From Nitrospirota bacterium (lineage in GTDB: Bacteria; Nitrospirota; Nitrospiria; Nitrospirales; Nitrospiraceae), in NCBI GenBank assembly GCA_963701855.1, contig CAVPBK010000014.1, positions 32,001 through 96,000 of the forward strand: a stretch of 64,000 nucleotides of DNA, read 5' to 3'. Of this stretch, positions 4,889 to 59,717 are shown one piece after another. The position numbers and the translations under genes were made by a program. Every line of letters starts with the position of its first letter. Within the stretch, counting starts at the first letter, position 1. The notes below the pieces were generated by a model. It searched no databases. It saw only the letters and a program-made list of their open reading frames with translations, and had not been told where the DNA came from.

Positions 4889-5764
4889 TCACTCCATGAC
4901 TCGTAGCCGACTTGCCAGCGTTACATAGTAGTAGAAGACAGGGGCGGTGAACAAGAGACTATCCAGACGGTCGAGCATACCTCCATGACCCGGCAGTATC
5001 CCGCCGGAGTCCTTCATGCCGACGCTACGTTTCATGGCCGATTCGGTCAGGTCGCCCCAAAGACCTGTGATGGTCAGTAGGATGCCCAAGATCAGACAAT
5101 CGAGGCCTGACAACTCAGGGAGAAACCACCAACGGGCTACATACGCGACAATTATGGCACCGATCAACCCACCCACCAAGCCCTCGACCGTTTTCTTTGG
5201 ACTGATTGTGGGGGCCAATCGATGTCGCCCAAACAGTGTGCCGACATAATAGGCGCCGGTATCCGAGGCCCAGGTTACCAGCAGGAGAAAAAAGATCAGC
5301 CATTCACCCTGAGGCAAGAGCCTCGTCATCGAGAGCGCACTGAGTGTGAGACCGAGATAGAGTACGCCGAACAAGGTCATGGCGCCATTCCTCAGGCTCT
5401 GCTCGAGGGGAGCGCAACTAAAGAGTGGGACAGACAGAATGCCGACCAGTGTGGCCAGGAGGGCTGGAACGATGATGTCCGTCCAGTGTGTTCCGAGAAT
5501 CAGAGCGCCGAATCCTATCAGGCCGATCCCTATCAGCCAGGAATGGCTGCGGTCGCTGAGACACAATCGGTAGAACTCGAAGAGGGCGAGCCCTCCCGCT
5601 AGCACCACGATCCCGGAAAATGCGAGGGGTGGAAGATAACGAATCACGGCGTATAAGAGTGGAGCAAGAACCAGAATGGTATAGATCCGGCGGAGATCGA
5701 ATCGGGGTGCCGCTTTAGGCGCTGGTTCAGCTTGCTGTTGGCCGGCGGTTTTGTATTCCTGCAT
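4889..5764 (-). CDS. cdsA: Phosphatidate cytidylyltransferase (start uncertain, 5764 or 5785)
   Basis: SDTGAYYVG, ISPKKTVEG, KDSGGILPGHGGMLDRLDS. Confidence 0.95.
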   Translation of the reverse strand: MQEYKTAGQQQAEPAPKAAPRFDLRRIYTILVLAPLLYAVIRYLPPLAFSGIVVLAGGLALFEFYRLCLSDRSHSWLIGIGLIGFGALILGTHWTDIIVPALLATLVGILSVPLFSCAPLEQSLRNGAMTLFGVLYLGLTLSALSMTRLLPQGEWLIFFLLLVTWASDTGAYYVGTLFGRHRLAPTISPKKTVEGLVGGLIGAIIVAYVARWWFLPELSGLDCLILGILLTITGLWGDLTESAMKRSVGMKDSGGILPGHGGMLDRLDSLLFTAPVFYYYVTLASRLRVME

Positions 5765-8209: not shown

Positions 8210-9573
8210 ATCAGCAGATACAACAGCGCGATGGGTATAGCCAGCTTGCGTTGGACCTTTTGGCCAAGGCAAAACGCGGTGGGGCGACGGAAGCGGACAT
8301 CATTGTCGCTGACGGCGAAACCTTTTCGGTGCAAGTCCGGTTAGGTGCCGTCGATCGCCTCACGAAAGCGCGGGAGAAGCATCTCGGTTTGCGCGTGTTT
8401 GTCGGAAAACGCTCAGCCAGTACCTCCACCTCCGATTTTTCAGCGGACTCATTGGATCAGCTCGTTGCCGAGACCTGCACCCTGGCGAAGGCTGTCGTAG
8501 AAGATCAGGTATCCGGCTTGCCGGCGGCGGATCAAATGGCGGGAGAGAAGCCAGATTTGGATCTCTACGATCCCACCCGACTCAATACAGAACAGCAAAT
8601 CGAATTGGCCAAACGTGTCGAAGCTGCTGCTATGTCTACGGATGAGCGTGTGACGAATTCGGAAGGGGGCGACTTCGATTCCTCTTCTGGCCGCGTAGTG
8701 CTGGGCAATAGTCACGGATTCTTGGGTGAGTACCAGAGTTCCAGTTTCTCCATGTCAGTATCGCCTGTTGCCACCGATCCGGAGACCGGCGCCATGCAAC
8801 GGGATTCCTGGTACGCGGTGCAACGGAAATTTGCCAAGCTGGACTCCCCGGAGGCGGTGGGACTGGAAGCGGCACGGCGGACGATCCGAAAGCTCGGGGC
8901 GAGGAAAGTGGCAACCCAACAAGTTCCTGTTGTCTTTGATGCAGAAACAGCCGGAAGTCTCATGGGGAATCTTTGCAGCGCAGTGTCGGGGTATGCCCTC
9001 TATAAAGGGGCGTCATTCCTGGCCGGCCAATTAGACAAATCGCTGGCTCCGGAGTATGTCACGGTTTACGACGATGGGCGAGTAGTCGGAGGTCTGGGCT
9101 CTCGACCGTTTGATGGCGAAGGTCTGCTGACCAGGAAGACGACGGTGGTGGAGCGAGGAGTATTGAAGAGCTACCTGCTCGATACCTACTCAGGGCGGAA
9201 GCTCGGGTTGGCTTCGACCGGCAACGCTTCCCGTAGTGTCGGCGAGAATCCATCGGTCGGTCCCACGAATTTCTATCTCGCCCCAGGGGCAAAGACCGCG
9301 CAAGACATTATCAAGACGGTGAAACAGGGCTTGTATGTCACGGACCTCATCGGTTTCGGTATCAACATGGTGACTGGTGATTATTCGCGGGGAGCTGCTG
9401 GGTTTTGGATCGAAGGGGGCGAGTTGGCCTATCCCGTGGAAGAGATCACGATTGCGGGCAATCTGAAAGACATGTTTGCGGGAATAGAAATGATCGGCAG
9501 CGATCTTGTGTTTCGCGGACGCATTGCCAGTCCGACTGTGAAGATTACAGAGATGATGGTGGCGGGAAGCTAG
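8206..9573 (+). CDS. pmbA: TldE/PmbA family protein
   Basis: SRPFDGEG, TGDYSRGAAGFWIE, YPVEEITIAGNL; ATGA overlap with tldD. Confidence 0.94.
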   Translation: MNQQIQQRDGYSQLALDLLAKAKRGGATEADIIVADGETFSVQVRLGAVDRLTKAREKHLGLRVFVGKRSASTSTSDFSADSLDQLVAETCTLAKAVVEDQVSGLPAADQMAGEKPDLDLYDPTRLNTEQQIELAKRVEAAAMSTDERVTNSEGGDFDSSSGRVVLGNSHGFLGEYQSSSFSMSVSPVATDPETGAMQRDSWYAVQRKFAKLDSPEAVGLEAARRTIRKLGARKVATQQVPVVFDAETAGSLMGNLCSAVSGYALYKGASFLAGQLDKSLAPEYVTVYDDGRVVGGLGSRPFDGEGLLTRKTTVVERGVLKSYLLDTYSGRKLGLASTGNASRSVGENPSVGPTNFYLAPGAKTAQDIIKTVKQGLYVTDLIGFGINMVTGDYSRGAAGFWIEGGELAYPVEEITIAGNLKDMFAGIEMIGSDLVFRGRIASPTVKITEMMVAGS

Positions 9574-9674
9574 GAGCAGATGGCAGATAGCGCATAGCTG
9601 ATGGTTCGGATGCGAAGCGCAATGCTTTCCCATATGCCCTTAGCCATAAGCTCTTCATCCCAGCGAGGTAAGCC

Positions 9675-10385
9675 ATGGCCGAGTCAATCAGGGAAACGTT
9701 GGTCCAGTATCCCGGCGACAAGGTGACGATGCGGGCCTATGTCGCTGCCCCGCAAACCAAGGAGCGACGCCCAGCGATTATCGTGATTCAGGAATGGTGG
9801 GGACTGACCGAACATATCAAGGGCGTGGCAAGGCGCTATGCCGCTGAGGGGTATGTGGCGGTCGCTCCGGATTTGTACTCCCGATTAGGGAACGCCCTCA
9901 CCACCGATCCCGGCGAGGCAGGCAAGTTGATGAATACGCTCCAGCAGGAAGATGGACTCAAGGATCTCAATGCCACCGTTGCCTATCTCAAGTCCGTTCC
10001 TGAGGTCGACGCCACGAAAATCGGAGTGACCGGATTCTGCATGGGCGGATCCTATGCGCTCATGCTGCCTTGTGTGAACAAAGATATTAAGGCCGCCGTG
10101 CCGTTCTATGGTCAGGTGCCGAATCCCGATGCGCCGCTGCAACAGCTGTCGGCTCCTGTCCTCTACCTCTATGGAGAGGATGACGGCTGGATTACCAAGG
10201 CGGATGTTCAGCGGCTCGCGGCAGGCTTCAAGAAATACAATAAGTCCGGCGAGATCAAAACCTATCCCGGCGCGCCCCATGCTTTTTTTCGAGATACAGA
10301 TAAGACCGTCTATCGTTCTGAGGCAGCCCAAGACGCCTGGATTCGCGCCACAGCATTTTTCAAACAGCACTTGAGATCGTCGTAA
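9675..10385 (+). CDS. Dienelactone hydrolase family protein
   Basis: IQEWWGL, GFCMGG nucleophile elbow, YPGAPHAF. Confidence 0.92.
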   Translation: MAESIRETLVQYPGDKVTMRAYVAAPQTKERRPAIIVIQEWWGLTEHIKGVARRYAAEGYVAVAPDLYSRLGNALTTDPGEAGKLMNTLQQEDGLKDLNATVAYLKSVPEVDATKIGVTGFCMGGSYALMLPCVNKDIKAAVPFYGQVPNPDAPLQQLSAPVLYLYGEDDGWITKADVQRLAAGFKKYNKSGEIKTYPGAPHAFFRDTDKTVYRSEAAQDAWIRATAFFKQHLRSS

Positions 10386-10402
10386 GAGGAGTTAGAAGTT
10401 TT

Positions 10403-10858
10403 ATGCCGCTTGATGTCGAAATCGGAAAGACCATGCTCCAGTTGATTACGTCGCGATACGACGACCGGCATTGGCGCAAGAGGATAGAAAAGACCTTGGG
10501 TTTGCCTCAATCCGGTGTCGGAGATCCTGCGCAACAGCAGATATTCATGTATCTCAAGATCGGTCTCAAGGCCTACAAGTCGCGCCGGGCCGATCCTGAC
10601 TCCTGGATTATCGGAGGGTATGCGACGAAAGAAATTATTGATCGAGCCAAGTTTCAACCTCAGCTGGTCGGTCCAAACGTGACGAAGGATGATGTGGCAT
10701 TTCTCGGCAGCGATCCGGGGAAAGAGATCGACGAAGCCTGGTGGGATGAGATGCTGGTGTCCTGGTTCGATGTGCCGGAAGAAGAAAAGCCTGCCGAAGA
10801 AGAAGCTGCCGAGTCCACCGGTTCAGACCCCTCGTTCACCATCAAAGCGAAAGTCTAG
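10403..10858 (+). CDS. Hypothetical protein
   Basis: 151-aa ORF with AGGAG upstream, co-directional with the operon, acidic tail; no recognisable motif. Confidence 0.7.
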   Translation: MPLDVEIGKTMLQLITSRYDDRHWRKRIEKTLGLPQSGVGDPAQQQIFMYLKIGLKAYKSRRADPDSWIIGGYATKEIIDRAKFQPQLVGPNVTKDDVAFLGSDPGKEIDEAWWDEMLVSWFDVPEEEKPAEEEAAESTGSDPSFTIKAKV

Positions 10859-10943
10859 GACCGACGCCCGCTGCTGCTTCCGCTCTTGCCAGCAGGGGGT
10901 GGTCGCCCGGGAGGATGCGCGCCGCCGCAAGACCTCCTGAATC

Positions 10944-11054
10944 ACCCAACTACGCCTTACTCGCTCGAAGCCTGTAAACTCGCCGAGCCTCAAACAATAC
11001 AGGCTTCGCCGTTGCAGCGGAAGAGCAACGGCCGCGAGTTGCGGCAAGTTGTGT
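10944..11054. other. attC-like or branched stem-loop element
   Basis: Ends ACCCAAC / GTTGTGT, inner ACTCGC/GCGAGT stem, two internal hairpins GAAGCCTGTA/TACAGGCTTC and GCCGTTGC/GCAACGGC. Confidence 0.45.
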
Positions 11055-11156
11055 CCCGATTCATCCGGTCATCGGCGGCAACGATCCTCCCGAACGACTT
11101 TGAGGAATAAACTGAGCGAGCTTGAAAGGATTTATAGAGACAGATGCGAAGCGTCG

Positions 11157-11253
11157 GCTCAACGCTTGAACTCAGCGGCACTTGAGGCGGCGTGCGTGGC
11201 GCGGCAGCGCCATGCGTGACGAGTCAAGTGTCCGCTGCAGCGATTTGTTCGGC
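11157..11253 (-). mobile_element. Integron attC recombination site (97 bp) downstream of the RT gene
   Basis: Minus strand: GCCGAAC-AAATC-GCT(G)CAGCGG(A)CACTTGA ... TCAAGTGCCGCTGAGT-TCAAGC-GTTGAGC. R''/R' cores, paired L boxes and two extrahelical bases at the canonical positions. Confidence 0.85.
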
Positions 11254-11327
11254 AGCATATGGAAATGGTCTATCAAGAGAATATGGCCGTTCGCGTAGAA
11301 CTCATTTTGGGGATGTGGAATGTCCTA

Positions 11328-12824
11328 TCAGTATGCCCACGCATTCTGCTTGAACAGTTCGACTTCTTCGGGTTGTACCACTTCTTGAGCATCAGACGCT
11401 GACCCCACCACAATCTTTGATACCTCTAACGCGCACTTGAGGTCATCGCTTGCGATCCAATCGTTCTCCCACAGATCTGGGGATTGGCCATTCACGATTT
11501 GACATATCGGCTCATCACTAGTGAACGTCATACCGACTGCTTTCGGCTGTGTTACTCGTTGCAACCATATTTCAAGGTAGCCGTTATACGGCACTCGGGC
11601 CATCTTTTTGTGAACCTTCTTCCACAGTCGAGCTTTCTCTTCGGTTGAGGCAAGTGAGATGAGGTGGCTCAGGATGGCCGCAACAGCGGGGAAAGTGGCC
11701 GGCGAAACGAACGCAATGTCCGCTGCAATCGCAACTTGCACCTCAAGATCGTCAGGATTTTCAGTTTGCGTCGAAATTTTGGTGTGAAACTCGCTAACCA
11801 AGCGTCGGAGCGCTCCACTATTCGGGAAGCGCTGCCCGAATGAATGTAGTCTTAGAAGTTGTTTCTGAATCGTTTTTGCATTTGCATCTCCTAGGTCTTG
11901 TAGATCAATGCCTGCCAACTTGTCCGGTTTGATTGATCCCTCGACGACATTCCTGCATAAGAAAGTCTTAGCTACGCCTAGCTTCATTCCGACTGACCGC
12001 AATTTATCACTGATAATTTTCAGTATCTCTTCGGCTCGATCGTCGCTATTGGAAAATATCTTGTAATCGTCGCGATATCTGAGTATCCGAAAATCGGCCT
12101 GATCGTCTAGAGCGGAGTTGATTTGTTGGTCAACATACCCAAGAACGATCTCCGCCACAAAGTCCATCAAGACAGAACCCTGAGAAATGCCGTTGGTCTG
12201 TCCGTACCTGCCTGCTTGGATGTGTGAATCGATTTTTTCTCCGAGAAGAGAGTTTTTCCCTTTTTCCCTCTTGGCTTCTTCAAGGCCGTGGAGTGCCCAG
12301 GAAATGCTGTGTGTATATAGAGATCCGTAACAGTCTGTTACATCGGTGTGAAGAATGTGACTGAATTCCAGAGAGTAGACTAGAGATCGCTGCTCGACAC
12401 TTTGCCACCAGCTCTTAATCTGTGTTGCCACATCTGCTTGATTGTCTAGCGACATCACTGGAGCGCTGCAACAGTCAACAGCGCCATCTTCAAACTCAGA
12501 TAAGCGTTTAGTGATATGTGTCCAATTCTCCGGGGCGCAGATTACATTCACCAAAGAGACATAAAGCGCCGGGTGCATCAGCTCATATGGACGCCACGCG
12601 AACTTGCCATCCTTATTTGCGATAAAGTTGTAGTTTACGTTTGGCAAATCCTTAGGGTTCTTCGACTTAAATGCAGCATAGTTCCCCCCTTTCAAGACCG
12701 TCTCGACGTCGTTCAGAATCGGCTCGAAGCTGATGTAGCTAGGCAAGTCACCATTGAAGTAGCTACTCTCCTTCAAGAAGTGCTTTCTTGCTTCTTCGTT
12801 TGAAAGCTCAACTAATCGCTTCAT
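11328..12824 (-). CDS. Reverse transcriptase of the Abi/UG defence class (Abi-P2-like)
   Basis: NKDGKFAWRPYELMHPALY, TDVTDCYGSLYTHSISWALHG, GISQGSVLMDFVAEIVLG, catalytic YRDD, followed by a helical C-terminal extension; visibly AT-richer than its flanks. Confidence 0.88.
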   Translation of the reverse strand: MKRLVELSNEEARKHFLKESSYFNGDLPSYISFEPILNDVETVLKGGNYAAFKSKNPKDLPNVNYNFIANKDGKFAWRPYELMHPALYVSLVNVICAPENWTHITKRLSEFEDGAVDCCSAPVMSLDNQADVATQIKSWWQSVEQRSLVYSLEFSHILHTDVTDCYGSLYTHSISWALHGLEEAKREKGKNSLLGEKIDSHIQAGRYGQTNGISQGSVLMDFVAEIVLGYVDQQINSALDDQADFRILRYRDDYKIFSNSDDRAEEILKIISDKLRSVGMKLGVAKTFLCRNVVEGSIKPDKLAGIDLQDLGDANAKTIQKQLLRLHSFGQRFPNSGALRRLVSEFHTKISTQTENPDDLEVQVAIAADIAFVSPATFPAVAAILSHLISLASTEEKARLWKKVHKKMARVPYNGYLEIWLQRVTQPKAVGMTFTSDEPICQIVNGQSPDLWENDWIASDDLKCALEVSKIVVGSASDAQEVVQPEEVELFKQNAWAY

Positions 12825-12846
12825 AGGCTTCAGAATTATTTTGATC

Positions 12847-12869
12847 GCATAACGCGGCGTGGGTTATGT
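12847..12869 (-). mobile_element. Cassette 5' boundary / collapsed attC remnant
   Basis: Minus strand ACATAAC-CCACGCCGC-GTTATGC, with the GTT core just upstream of the RT ATG. Confidence 0.5.
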
Positions 12870-13267
12870 GTTCAACGAAAGAATGTAGTTGCCTTACCAT
12901 GCTATTTGTGTGCGCAGATGGTGGGGACATTCTACTTTTTCGAGCATGACGAGTCTATCTCTAGTCAGAGCCTCGGATGGAAGGGATGGGCACGGAGGCT
13001 TTCGCCATGGCGTCATATGCCGATTGCTTGCCAAACCAAGTGCAGTGGCGTCGTTCTTCCGGTCCGGTAAGGCGCACGGCCAACAATGAAGCGCCCATTT
13101 GCAGTCTTGCGTCATCGCATCATGGTGAAGCCGGAGCTGTCCGCCCTTCGTCAGCCGAGACATTTTTCTGCCCGACCAAGTCAGAAAGGGTCGCTCCGAA
13201 AGATGAGGGGTGGTGGCTCTGATAGGTACCGGCTGTGGTGGCTCGATGTGGAGTGTAAAGGGTTGGG

Positions 13268-13564
13268 TTACAGCAAGTAACGGTCGATGTTGAGCGCGCC
13301 ATGGAAAACGCCGAGAATATCGATCGCACCGGAATCTCTGATTATATAAGCGATTCGATAATGCCCATGTAGAAGAATGCGGATGTGTCGGTCTGCTCGC
13401 TGCCAGTAGCGATAGCCTGACTCGGGGAATTCTCTGAGGACTTCTGCTTTCTGGTAGAGCGTTTCTACGGTGCGATAGGCAGCGGCGGGGTTATCTTGCG
13501 CAATATAGTCGTGGATGTCGCGCAGCCATCGTTCGGCTTCGACTGTCCAGGTCAGCTCCCCCAT
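13268..13564 (-). CDS. Type II TA toxin, RelE/ParE family
   Basis: WTVEAERWLRDIHDYIAQDNPAAA ... LREFPESG ... YRIAY ... ILGVFHG. Confidence 0.9.
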   Translation of the reverse strand: MGELTWTVEAERWLRDIHDYIAQDNPAAAYRTVETLYQKAEVLREFPESGYRYWQRADRHIRILLHGHYRIAYIIRDSGAIDILGVFHGALNIDRYLL

Positions 13565-13737
13565 GTCTTGATGCGGCGCCCCATCTCTTCATGGCTGATC
13601 GTTCTTCGGGTATCGGAGTCCGCAAGCCCTCGTTCGATCATTCTGGCAAAGGCCAACTCCCGAAGAATTTCGTCGTAGGAACTGTCGTCTGGCTGGTCTT
13701 GAAGGATTTTGGCGATCTGTTCTTTTGCGGAAGGCAT
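13552..13737 (-). CDS. Putative antitoxin
   Basis: Small ORF overlapping the toxin start; QPDDSSYDEIL, IERGLAD, TISHEE typical of ParE-associated antitoxins; GAGGTG RBS. Confidence 0.82.
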   Translation of the reverse strand: MPSAKEQIAKILQDQPDDSSYDEILRELAFARMIERGLADSDTRRTISHEEMGRRIKTWGS

Positions 13738-13855
13738 GATCACCTCGTTAATTGAGATAACGATTCACTGACCCTACGCTCACAAGCTTAGCGGTAAGCC
13801 TCTTGATTTACAAGCAACCAACTGGATGTACCGATCATTTCACGGACGGCGGTTT

Positions 13856-14497
13856 CTAGCCGAAGAGATCCATTTGAGTCGGCTGCGGCGGTTCGATGTT
13901 GAGGGCTGGAGCGGCTGGCGTTGTGGATTCGGCTGGGGTCGGTTGAGAATGGCGGTCGAGGAATTCTCTTAACTTCTTGAAGTCTTCCTTGAGTGGTTCG
14001 AGCATGCTGCCTTGGTGCAAGGCTGCGGCTGGATGCAGTAAGGGGAAGAGGACGAAGTCTTTCAAGTAGAAGGCCTGGCCGCGAACCTTGGTAATCCCCA
14101 CCTTCCGTTCCAGTAATGTTTGCGTCGCCCAATTCCCCAACGTGCAGACTAGTTTGGGGTGGATCATCGCGATCTGTTGCATGAGAAATGGTTTACATGT
14201 CTCGACTTCATCCGGCTCCGGGTCGCGGTTATTCGGAGGCCGGCACTTGATCACATTGGCGATGTAGATGTCGCTGCGTGACAATCCAGCTGATTGTAGG
14301 AGATCGTTCAAGAGTTTTCCTGCAGCCCCGACAAACGGTTCCCCTTGCTGGTCCTCATGGAAGCCAGGCGCTTCCCCTACGAACATCACGCTCGCATGCG
14401 GATTTCCCACACCAAACACCACTTGGGTTCGGCCCATCTTCGCGAGCTTGCAACGTTGGCAGTTGTGCAGAGACTTGCCGAGTTCGAGGAGAGTCAT
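13856..14497 (-). CDS. udg: Uracil-DNA glycosylase family 4
   Basis: CQRC Fe-S ligands, GEAPG, GEPFVGAAG, KCRPPNNRDP, LHPAA. Confidence 0.95.
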   Translation of the reverse strand: MTLLELGKSLHNCQRCKLAKMGRTQVVFGVGNPHASVMFVGEAPGFHEDQQGEPFVGAAGKLLNDLLQSAGLSRSDIYIANVIKCRPPNNRDPEPDEVETCKPFLMQQIAMIHPKLVCTLGNWATQTLLERKVGITKVRGQAFYLKDFVLFPLLHPAAALHQGSMLEPLKEDFKKLREFLDRHSQPTPAESTTPAAPALNIEPPQPTQMDLFG

Positions 14498-14627
14498 GAT
14501 GGTGAAGGGGGCCGGTGAAAATTTCAAAGGATTTTAGGCGGGCCGACTTTTCTTGTCAATGGAAGGGAAACGTGTGAAAAATGGTTGCGCAGACTGCCAT
14601 GTCTGTATGGAGCCAAAGGAGGACATC

Positions 14628-15284
14628 ATGCCATTCATAAAACGGCTCGTAGTCGGATTTTTTGTCTTCACGATGAGTGTAGGCGCGGCCTGGGCTGCTG
14701 AACGAGGGTATCAGCTTGTCGCCAGCAAGGACAGCAAGCTCTGCGCAAGAGCGCTGGAAGCGTTTCGTGAGGATGTGGACGATCGATGGCGGCTGCGATA
14801 CCAGCACGAGATCTTTCGGCAGATTCCCTGGAAGCCGGTCGAGTTGAAGGGGCAAGGGCCAAAAACGAGGCATTGCTCGAGTCTCGATAAAGCGGTATTT
14901 GATTTGGATAATGATGGGCAACCGGATTTGGTGGTCAAGACAACGTTCTGTATGAAGGGGAGTCCGAGCGACAGTTTCTATATGTTTCCTGCCAATAGCG
15001 CTGTTCTTGAGCAAGCCAATTGGCAGGACTTGTCGCCTCTGATGGCGACGCCTGATAAGTTCGAGCGGACGGGCGGGGCCTATCCCTTGACGCAACTTCC
15101 TATTGAGGAAACAGGCGTGAGCCGGACGACATTGGCAGGGGTCTTTACAGTTCAACCCTTCATGGTGGACGAGAGCGCGTACGTTAGTCTGACGGATGGG
15201 CGTGCTGAATGGACCGTGATCGCGCAATACCGAGGCAACGGACGTTTCGAGGACCTTTGTTACCTTCATGCGGCGGCAAAGTAG
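14628..15284 (+). CDS. Hypothetical exported protein
   Basis: AGGAGG RBS, signal peptide ending AWA, four Cys, DLDNDG Ca-binding-like motif. Confidence 0.7.
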   Translation: MPFIKRLVVGFFVFTMSVGAAWAAERGYQLVASKDSKLCARALEAFREDVDDRWRLRYQHEIFRQIPWKPVELKGQGPKTRHCSSLDKAVFDLDNDGQPDLVVKTTFCMKGSPSDSFYMFPANSAVLEQANWQDLSPLMATPDKFERTGGAYPLTQLPIEETGVSRTTLAGVFTVQPFMVDESAYVSLTDGRAEWTVIAQYRGNGRFEDLCYLHAAAK

Positions 15285-58735: not shown

Positions 58736-59296
58736 GTGAAACGCTTCACCTCATCCATTCGCAAGTCCGTTCAGGACGGGAATCTGTATGGCGCACTATT
58801 TGTATCCCTTGCAATGCCAGACATCTGCGGTGCACTTGAAGATCCCCTGGCAGCGGTCGGGGAGCGCTACAAGGCCTGGTTTCGCCGCTACCTCAACCCT
58901 AAATACGATCCCGCAACTCAGCTGGAGTTCATAACTGCGACCGTGCCACAAGCAGCGGCATCATTACCTCCGGAGGCAATCAGCAGTTTGCAGACTCCAT
59001 TCGACCAAAACTTGTCATTCACGGCTGAAGATTGCTATCAATGCAGATGCAGATGCCTGCATCAAGGGCTCCTCGAGAGGTCTGGCCGAACGAAGTTCAT
59101 ATTCATCTCCGGCCTCCCCACAGGCACCATCCTCCACAGGAATTTAAGGAATGGGCAGTTGGTGTTGCAGATTGAGCTCTTTGCCGAAGACATGTGTCTT
59201 GCCGTAGAAGACTGGGACAGGGACGTCCGAAGTAGTGGTGCAGTCGCTTCAAGAATAGACGACCTCATATCGATCACTGAATGGTTCAATCTGTAG
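58736..59296 (+). CDS. Cassette-borne hypothetical protein with RxxxxH (HEPN-like) motif
   Basis: ALFVSLAMPDICGALE, RYKAWF, CYQCRCRCLHQG; followed by attC. Confidence 0.7.
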   Translation: MKRFTSSIRKSVQDGNLYGALFVSLAMPDICGALEDPLAAVGERYKAWFRRYLNPKYDPATQLEFITATVPQAAASLPPEAISSLQTPFDQNLSFTAEDCYQCRCRCLHQGLLERSGRTKFIFISGLPTGTILHRNLRNGQLVLQIELFAEDMCLAVEDWDRDVRSSGAVASRIDDLISITEWFNL

Positions 59297-59323: not shown

Positions 59324-59382
59324 GCCTAACCCTTCCCTTGAGGCGACTGCCCATGGGCAGCGCCTCATGTCAAACGTTGGGG
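59324..59382 (+). mobile_element. Integron attC site (59 bp)
   Basis: GCCTAAC-CCTTC-CCTTGAGGCG(A)CTGCCC-AT-GGGCAGCGCCTCATG-TCAAAC-GTTGGGG. Confidence 0.85.
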
Positions 59383-59717
59383 GAGGTGTGAGTACGAAGG
59401 GTCACAAGCAGGGAAATAAACGGGGACATTCTGAATTTTTACGGGTGACCATGCGAGATTTACTGGAAGAAACCAGTATGTCCATATATATCCTTCCCTA
59501 ACAAGGCGCTCCAGCCGACCGCCAGGCAAGTTCCTCAGTTCCTCCATGCTGTCGTGGCACGCGGCGGCTGGGCTGTGGCGGTAGATTTCATAGAACATCG
59601 CTGATACAGTTTCGTGCGAACACGGGCGGGGTCATTGTACTTTTTCTGGGGCATCTTGGTCTATGTTTCTTCGTGCACCATAATACTGCTCTTTCTCTCT
59701 CAGTAGTCAGGAAGGGC

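Follow-up and report, generated by a model that had tools for sequence, protein, structure and literature searches.

An intact Abi-P2-type reverse transcriptase on an integron-type cassette, probably stranded in a Nitrospira chromosome after loss of the integrase

An intact Abi-P2-type reverse transcriptase (RT) gene lies directly upstream of an integron attC site in a 64,000-nucleotide stretch of a Nitrospira chromosome (assembly GCA_963701855.1, contig CAVPBK010000014.1, positions 32,001 to 96,000 of the forward strand; hereafter the window). We propose, with a probability of roughly 0.85, that the gene arrived on an integron cassette and was stranded in this chromosome when the integrase was lost, and that close copies of the cassette reside in arrays of other phyla. 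The genome that hosts the window (G000) comprises 4.3 Mb in 15 contigs and is 97% complete; other genomes are labelled G, loci L and sequencing runs X. A sequence-only reading of the window had described a mobile anti-phage RT cassette, and what it observed and how it interpreted this were mostly upheld, apart from the 5' boundary of the cassette and the residues proposed to prime synthesis. The cassette consists of the following features, in window coordinates:

11328..12824, minus strand: intact Abi-P2-family RT gene, a 498-aa open reading frame (ORF) with YRDD at residues 250-253 and Y30 as the candidate priming Tyr
11254..11327, minus strand: 3' untranslated spacer of 74 nt between stop codon and attC, read from the sequence
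11157..11253, minus strand: attC of 97 nt, with R'' GCCGAAC at 11253-11247 and R' GTTGAGC at 11163-11157
12825..12908, minus strand: retained 5' cassette leader, with an inverted repeat at 12841-12875 and GTTATGC at 12853-12847; the cassette's own 5' core is missing

Results

The gene encodes an intact member of the Abi-P2 family

The RT is a member of the Abi-P2 family of UG/Abi reverse transcriptases. Translation of the minus-strand ORF yields the 498-residue protein with YRDD and the other motifs quoted in the sequence-only reading, and the Abi-P2-type assignment made there is borne out by two full-length matches. The PADLOC AbiP2 model (PDLC03744) aligns end to end with the protein (E 4.3e-195; residues 1-495 on profile positions 4-487 of 489), the runners-up being UG14 (E 2.4e-49) and then Drt6 and Drt4. 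The best match among solved structures is 7r08_A (E 9.6e-79; query 1-491 on chain residues 32-540), with the match to the AbiK structure far weaker. Both the 7r08_A and the full-length AbiP2 alignments cover the C-terminal helical domain of Abi type; Pfam detects the generic palm alone (RVT_1, E 3.1e-11, residues 155-290).

According to Figiel et al. (2022; PMC9508834), the structure 7R08 comprises native residues 1-541 of Abi-P2 from a P2-like prophage of E. coli. This protein (orf570 of P2-EC30) is homologous to the window RT over its full length, RT and helical domains included; the two have the YRDD catalytic motif in common, and both are single-gene systems. The annotated Abi-P2 protein begins 31 residues earlier, and the prophage-type relatives are about 35-47% identical to the window RT. 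Whereas the original Abi-P2 sits in the variable region of a P2 prophage, the window RT lies on an integron cassette in environmental bacteria, and no P2-like prophage variable region surrounds it: its neighbours are TldD/PmbA-like ORFs, a 236-aa ORF, a uracil-DNA glycosylase (UDG) gene and a toxin-antitoxin pair. Prophage location is context and no requirement of the Abi-P2 protein family.

The RT gene is under purifying selection, with dN/dS of 0.05-0.15 in four gapless comparisons with homologues; dS was saturated in four further comparisons, and L087 and L088, which were out of frame, were disregarded. The window copy is intact, whereas a 7-bp insertion at nt 508 disrupts that of the congener G004. 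The GC content is 0.46-0.51 across the gene vs 0.53-0.59 in its flanks, in agreement with the sequence-only description of a gene AT-richer than its neighbours.

Y30 is the likely priming residue

Abi-P2 and AbiK are reported to synthesize DNA without a template from a tyrosine of the enzyme itself, and Abi-P2 to form a trimer in which the Y61F mutation leaves no polymerization and Y46F behaves like wild type (Figiel et al. 2022; PMC9508834). Given that residue 1 of the window RT aligns with residue 32 of 7r08_A and that the first 102 residues align without gaps at an offset of 31, Tyr61 of Abi-P2 corresponds to Y30 (in the motif LPSYISF) and Tyr46 to H15. The priming Tyr61 is thus conserved in the window RT.

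We aligned 66 relatives, 40 of them close (at least 60% identity) and 26 distant (below that). Y30 is invariant in all 66, as are D252 and D253. The sequence-only reading had proposed Y49, Y65 or the C-terminal Tyr as primers, and these fare less well: Y49 is kept in 29 of the 40 close and two of the 26 distant relatives, and the C-terminal Tyr in 36/40 and 2/26, with a gap in 21 of the distant sequences. Y65 is kept in all 40 close relatives and in 20 of the distant ones, the other six having His. The invariance of Y30, together with its alignment to Tyr61, means that these three are not the best candidates; as judged from the alignments, the likely priming residue is Y30, the counterpart of the fingers-loop Tyr61 of Abi-P2.

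The gene is followed by an attC site

With the minus strand taken as the top strand, the 97-nt site reads R'', a 5-nt spacer, a left arm with two single extra bases, a long and imperfectly paired stem with its 4-nt loop, the right arm, a 6-nt spacer and R'. When the AAC/GTT pairs are enforced in the fold, C 11238 and T 11231 emerge as the extrahelical bases of the bottom strand; they lie in one arm, 7 nt apart. Crossover would take place between G 11163 and T 11162 (written G/TT below). Compared with 200 shuffled sequences, the DNA fold has z-scores of -2.70 for the top strand (2/200 as good) and -2.98 for the bottom strand (1/200), and in energy per nucleotide the site ranks third, as the second locus, among 1651 R''/R' heptamer pairs from both strands of the whole genome, in which its sequence is unique. 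These folds and the genome-wide rank agree with the canonical attC of the sequence-only reading, which had listed R''=GCCGAAC, R'=GTTGAGC, paired L boxes and two extrahelical bases and had placed the RT stop codon about 75 nt before the site; the distance is 74 nt.

An Rfam scan of 9500-15000 at E<=10 returned a chance snoRNA match alone, with nothing at attC or at region B (described below), and we therefore built our own covariance models. Model R1 was seeded with six attCs, one from the array beside a full integron integrase (IntI) in the congener G101 and five from loci in other phyla. G101 alone gave a clear array; heptamer-plus-fold scans beside IntI in G067, G104 and G004 showed no convincing arrays, so these integrons were not used as sources of attCs. 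R1 recovered 5/5 attCs of the G101 array as well as same-strand arrays in many loci, and it matches 11157-11253 on the minus strand exactly (34.5 bits, E 3.7e-5 in 746 kb). Model R2 was rebuilt from 34 hits, with the window and G004 taken out of the search set, and recovers the same interval exactly (37.2 bits, E 4.5e-7 in the window), so that the sequence-only expectation of a covariance-model hit at this position was realized with our own models. Across the whole genome R2 gives eight hits at E<=1, seven of them in addition to the window attC and in four clusters. MAFFT alignments of attCs of mixed length (A1, A2) were structurally wrong in the 3' half and were excluded from the models, and a stricter fold filter was dropped in favour of the covariance models as it missed most RT-linked attCs (9/51).

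The window copy has lost its 5' core

The sequence-only reading took GTTATGC at 12853-12847 for the 5' core site of the cassette. Homology to the same cassette in G004 and in two metagenomes continues beyond this heptamer and ends at 12908/12909, 9 nt inside the cassette. The 5' core in relatives is GTTCGGC, 94 nt before the ATG in G004 and the exact complement of R'' GCCGAAC. Both the window and run X1, from soil, have other sequence in place of the nine cassette bases TTCGGCGTC and of what lies upstream of them. Contigs of permafrost and cave metagenomes (runs X2 and X4) have the G004-type junction and part from the window sequence at 12908; one of the X4 contigs spans 10902-12908 without a break. 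The heptamer GTTATGC at 12853 belongs to the cassette leader and recurs in G004, and the small hairpin around it (inverted repeat I10) folds no better than shuffled sequences (z 0.66 and -1.32).

A 5' boundary of the form G/TTRRRY that is complementary to the cassette's own R'' is therefore absent from the window; it is present in G004, in the X2/X4 contigs and, at consistent offsets, in 12 homologue loci. With its 5' core lost, the window unit is no longer a complete excisable cassette. The proposal of a mobile RT cassette thus stands as regards an integron-type cassette with a functional-looking attC, but not as regards a unit that could be excised whole.

Close copies of the cassette occur in arrays of other phyla

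A scan of species-representative genomes found 172 relatives of the RT, of which we kept the best 80; among these, 52 loci outside Nitrospira encode an RT 62-89% identical in protein. Their taxon labels include Desulfobacterota, Chloroflexota, Bacteroidota, Acidobacteriota, Gamma-, Beta- and Alphaproteobacteria, Cyanobacteria, Planctomycetota, Deinococcota, Bipolaricaulota, a candidate-phyla-radiation lineage and others, and several of the loci are on megabase contigs.

The cassette boundaries recur in these relatives. In many close homologues GCCGAAC lies 33-34 nt past the stop codon and GTTCGGC about 31 nt before the ATG. Around the ORF we found a perfectly complementary core pair in 14 of the 45 loci with enough flank, vs four in shifted control windows, and 12 of these 14 pairs are at consistent offsets. 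The spacer between RT and attC is 33-34 nt in homologues of other phyla and 54 nt in L094. R1 places an attC directly after the RT in 10 of the 52 loci (E<0.01), and R2 adds two such sites at E<=0.01 and four at E 0.1-0.75; in the RT-oriented loci all attC hits share the strand of the RT. Homology between the window attC and the attCs in L084, L091 and L093 is visible in the arms, whereas their central stems differ.

Several of these RTs are surrounded by arrays, with five attCs in L068, where the RT is in mid-array, four in L065 and three each in L067, L084, L093 and L105. In L067 an IntI fragment with 49% identity to the IntI of G004 is found in divergent orientation, some 170 nt upstream of the GTTCGGC of the cassette; IntI fragments occur in L121 and L098 as well, and two of five homologue host genomes checked have an IntI over the cut-off elsewhere. 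A scan of viral contigs found no close relatives of the RT and one relative at 40% identity. Among plasmids of cultured bacteria there is one close homologue, on Agrobacterium leguminum p1 (68.7%, in two pieces, unannotated), at which the attC models gave no hit.

A congener shows cassette insertion at the same site

Besides G000, the RT is present in one of 36 congeners searched, G004; a third match, in G027, is a different RT (38% identity). None of the 24 genomes searched from the sister families has it. Three congeners (G016, G001 and G003) have an empty site, which the sequence-only reading had suggested looking for in relatives. The distribution of the RT in the genus is patchy and non-vertical, in agreement with that reading.

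The window and G004 are 95.4% identical over 11161-12908, vs 85.8% and 87.0% in the flanks, and this step in identity coincides with the ends of the cassette. G004 has in addition an insert of about 760 bp, joined right after the G of R' with the left junction ...AAGCG/TTAGGC. The insert ends in a hairpin of its own, whose R'' GCCTAAC is the exact complement of GTTAGGC, after which the window sequence TTGAG.CGACGC... resumes. Judged by their sequence, these junctions are the signature of integrase-mediated cassette insertion, and this comparative evidence is stronger than any attC model. G004 encodes a full IntI on another contig (467.9 bits).

The product of the extra G004 cassette (L034 2669-3427) is a 203-aa protein that matches neither Pfam nor PADLOC models, and the attC of this cassette has ATT at its end in place of GTT.

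The host genome has integrase relics and other attC clusters

The integron-integrase model TIGR02249 gave 19 weak tyrosine-recombinase hits across the host genome, the best at 80.8 bits vs a cut-off of 265. None of the 19 is in the window, as the sequence-only reading had noted for tyrosine recombinases. The genome-wide search for intI that it had suggested found relics alone: 36 C-terminal residues at C6:756721-756828 (67% identity to the G004 IntI) and, at C6:177961-178097, fragments of 25 and 20 aa in different frames (64-65% identity to the G004 IntI C-terminus). A complete integron, with intI, attI and Pc beside an array, is absent from this 97%-complete assembly, as is any intact IntI. 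Over the genus, IntI exceeds the cut-off in six of 85 genomes.

R2 identifies four other small attC clusters in the host genome, one of them within the window at 59324-59586. There, a 186-aa ORF (58736-59296, plus strand; no Pfam or PADLOC match) opens a segment ending at 59586 and is followed by two attC-model hits, at 59324-59382 (31.2 bits) and 59496-59586 (28 bits; R' degenerate, GGTAGAT). At G000:C6:754530-756828 the 36-aa IntI relic is followed by two same-strand cassettes with attC hits, which encode a 5'-nucleotidase-like protein (PDC-S08, E 1.6e-107) and a DUF2971 protein (PDC-S31); this region looks like a degraded integron. The clusters at C6:859862-861159 (three sites) and C13:80065-81557 (two sites) contain small ORFs without a family match, and the 84-nt site at C6:859862-859945 is the best-folding R''/R' pair in the genome.

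The cassette occupies a variable site beside the UDG gene

The surroundings of the cassette contain the following features:

10403..10858, plus strand: conserved 151-aa ORF, one flank of the hotspot, adjoining UDG in G016, G001 and G003
10860..11124, no strand assigned: conserved region B, which marks the distal end of the variable part and is shared by five congeners at about 90% identity
12924..13193, minus strand: conserved non-coding region A, with BLAST matches to G009, G012, G015, G018 and G004; unique in the genome
12929..12957, minus strand: promoter-like TAGACT-17 nt-TAGAAT at the end of region A, pointing into the RT gene
13268..13564, minus strand: ParE-family toxin (Pfam ParE_toxin, E 3.5e-14)
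13552..13743, minus strand: small antitoxin-like ORF upstream of the ParE toxin
13856..14527, minus strand: UDG gene, the other flank of the hotspot, identified by Pfam (UDG, E 2.1e-36) and synteny

The 151-aa ORF and UDG are convergent. They lie about 120-170 bp apart in the three congeners with the empty site, and the gap between them holds varied content in eight others. In several congeners region A forms the UDG-side limit of the variable part, and region B is always at the end beside the 151-aa ORF; from 10902 to 11104 region B forms a branched hairpin of about 200 nt (consensus fold -87.9 kcal/mol, 3 compensatory pairs of 66). In G017 the hotspot (L040 3001-5306) encodes a 746-aa PDC-S06 protein, matched end to end by PADLOC (E 1.2e-287), and an attC match follows directly after the gene at 5245-5306; in G012 it encodes an HNH protein. 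When we searched for the hotspot flanks beside the IntI genes of the genus there were no hits, those integrons lying elsewhere. The promoter-like TAGACT-17-TAGAAT is the sole sigma-70-like match in 10700-14000, and G004, G009 and G018 share the end of region A with its TAGAAT.

The ParE toxin and the antitoxin-like ORF are a neighbouring accessory module of the same variable island. Their place is taken by MazF in G015 and G012, with a MazE-type ORF upstream in G015, and by a DUF5615/PIN-like ORF in G004. On the far side of the module, at 13230-13256, is a stretch of about 27 nt that resembles the UDG 3' coding end (about 13870-13900), and this repeated fragment suggests that the module inserted at, or replaced, the end of UDG.

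Other variation was seen within the conserved regions. A segment of about 170-190 bp of region A (12952-13121) behaves as an indel, being present in G009, G012 and G015, partial in G018 and absent in G004. G017 has two copies of the first half of region B (about 145 nt), metagenome depth is higher over 10968-11051 within this region, and a 31-bp stretch just past the 151-aa ORF (10863-10893) has a second copy in G015, G017 and G009 (97% identity). We also considered part of region B (10944-11054) as an attC. It has RYYYAAC/GTTRRRY-like ends and fold rank 7; the attC models do not match it, and it is therefore not called an attC.

Discussion

A model for capture and fixation of the RT cassette

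By homology to Abi-P2, the RT would form trimers, prime on its own Y30 and extend DNA without a template, acting as a single-gene abortive-infection polymerase that aborts phage infection. We envisage that it became the cargo of an integron cassette some 1.75 kb long and terminated by the 97-nt attC, one of a family that would circulate in the arrays of many phyla, and that recombination by IntI put it into the variable site between the convergent 151-aa ORF and UDG. The integrase would then have been lost from the host genome, leaving C-terminal relics elsewhere, and deletion of the 5' core of the cassette would have left the conserved promoter-like sequence some 105 nt ahead of the ATG. Given the intact attC, the lost 5' core and the missing integrase, the RT appears to be fixed in place, and from the combined analyses it is probably an expressed chromosomal defence gene. 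If IntI were supplied, the attC could take further cassettes, as in G004. What the sequences show directly is the family of the RT, the anatomy of the attC, the junction at G/TT and the distribution; phage defence, the priming role of Y30, use of the promoter and a dependence of the insertion on IntI are inferred from these.

Several observations weigh against this model. The window copy falls short of the full definition of a cassette, its 5' core being absent, and the covariance models find a single attC at the RT locus. Within that attC, R'' and R' pair at five of seven positions in situ, and the outer extrahelical base of the bottom strand is C, vs G in five of the six seed attCs (column 16). 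Our attC models are self-built, small (9 base pairs) and roughly calibrated, and RT cassettes of other phyla supplied several of their seed attCs, so the models do not replace that of IntegronFinder. With the host assembly 97% complete in 15 contigs, an IntI may sit in a gap; many of the homologue records are metagenome bins, and some of the taxon labels may therefore be wrong. The number of sigma-70-like matches is not above chance (one found vs 2.7 expected), so that any use of this sequence as a promoter is conjectural. RNA from the locus amounts to one 194-nt contig (11755-11945) from one soil metatranscriptome (run X20), in which DNA carry-over is possible, and runs X21 and X22, which belong to the study that yielded the best DNA holder, contain next to none of the matching words; these runs show neither expression nor silence of the RT.

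Alternative explanations

The cassette could instead have arrived, or been swapped between Nitrospira strains, by homologous recombination or transformation through flanks A and B, its attC being a passive relic of integron origin on which IntI did not act. We regard this as somewhat unlikely, though it accounts for several features of the locus: regions A and B are conserved around differing cargo in several congeners, an intact IntI is missing from the genome, those integrons of the genus that do carry IntI lie away from the UDG hotspot, and the 5' junction of the window copy, being 9 nt inside the cassette and not at G/TT, was made by something other than IntI. Against it, the tract of high identity between G000 and G004 stops exactly at the G/TT of R' (11161/11162) and not within flank B, the extra cassette of G004 is inserted precisely at G/TT with a matching R'', and the attC is intact and scores like the attCs of arrays. 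The G004 insertion also bears on the idea that the hairpin is an ordinary terminator or palindromic repeat whose likeness to attC is coincidental, the RT being a stand-alone island gene. A GC-rich hairpin 3' of a gene, with no Rfam entry, would suit a terminator; a terminator scan, however, finds no T-run and no site there, the uniqueness of the hairpin in the genome speaks against a repeat family, and both of its arms are homologous to attCs of the same cassette in arrays of other phyla. This explanation, which we consider very improbable, is already contradicted by these data.

We give almost no credence to a third possibility, that the enzyme is a retron RT, the RT of a group II intron (such as the attC-targeting IIC class) or that of another retroelement, and not an Abi-P2 polymerase. 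Group II introns are described as the RTs classically tied to attC sites (PMC7923331), and the association of an RT gene with attC is common to group IIC-attC introns and the window. Weak NCBIfam matches exist to group II intron RTs (43.2 bits) and to the retron St85 RT (25.9 bits), but these involve the palm only and are far below the cut-offs of 300 and 235; no NCBIfam model reached its cut-off in a scan that included retron, group II and DRT models, Drt4 scoring 122 vs 450. The full-length AbiP2 and 7R08 matches, in contrast, take in the C-terminal helical domain. Rfam shows no intron and no msr/msd RNA near the RT. Group IIC-attC introns are ribozyme-based retroelements inserted into attC, whereas the window RT, a protein of a different family without intron RNA, lies upstream of attC as the cargo of the cassette.

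A broader scenario can be put forward tentatively, with the odds still somewhat against it. One clade of Abi-P2 polymerases may have turned into a professional integron cassette that travels among at least a dozen phyla with a conserved attC of its own, and the UDG site may be an integrase-less, promoter-bearing docking site that is repeatedly reloaded with defence cassettes (RT, PDC-S06, HNH). Such a docking site would be bounded by regions A and B, the latter a structured element of about 200 nt belonging to no known family, with IntI coming from elsewhere in the cell or the community.

Relation to known systems

It is established that integron cassettes carry defence systems (Darracq et al., 10.1101/2024.07.02.601686; Kieffer et al., 10.1101/2024.07.02.601719). 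The anti-phage cassettes described there are likewise promoterless, attC-bearing defence genes, and the PADLOC candidates PDC-S06, PDC-S08 and PDC-S31 among the host-genome and hotspot cassettes strengthen the likeness. The two studies stress small, streamlined systems in Vibrio and clinical integrons, whereas the window cassette is large (498 aa) and belongs to Nitrospira and environmental phyla. In our literature search we found no report of Abi-P2 in integron cassettes, and the main texts of both studies mention no reverse transcriptase, DRT or AbiP2, though their supplementary tables may list such genes.

Also established are lone attCs away from integrases (SALINs) and insertion at genomic attG sites, where nearby promoters provide expression (Loot et al., 10.1101/2022.09.11.507474). 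Like the SALIN/CALIN and attG cases in that study, the window locus has a single attC, no integrase nearby and an expression that would depend on a resident promoter, and its relative in G004 shows a further IntI-type insertion at the site. Unlike those cases, it holds different cassettes at one position in several species, bounded by regions A and B, and the 5' junction of the window copy is truncated by 9 nt.

Implications

The findings would extend the idea of integrons as a biobank of defence genes from the small cassettes of Vibrio and clinical integrons to a large enzymatic gene, with nitrifiers among its hosts. The locus offers an example of a cassette that may have become fixed under a resident promoter after loss of the integrase, and a comparative case of cassette traffic at a chromosomal site remote from any integron platform. 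Close Abi-P2 variants, 62-89% identical and found in very different hosts, form a natural set for probing what triggers this defence, of which little is understood. The parts most worth following are the breadth of the cassette's spread and the recurrent use of a hotspot that has no integrase of its own.

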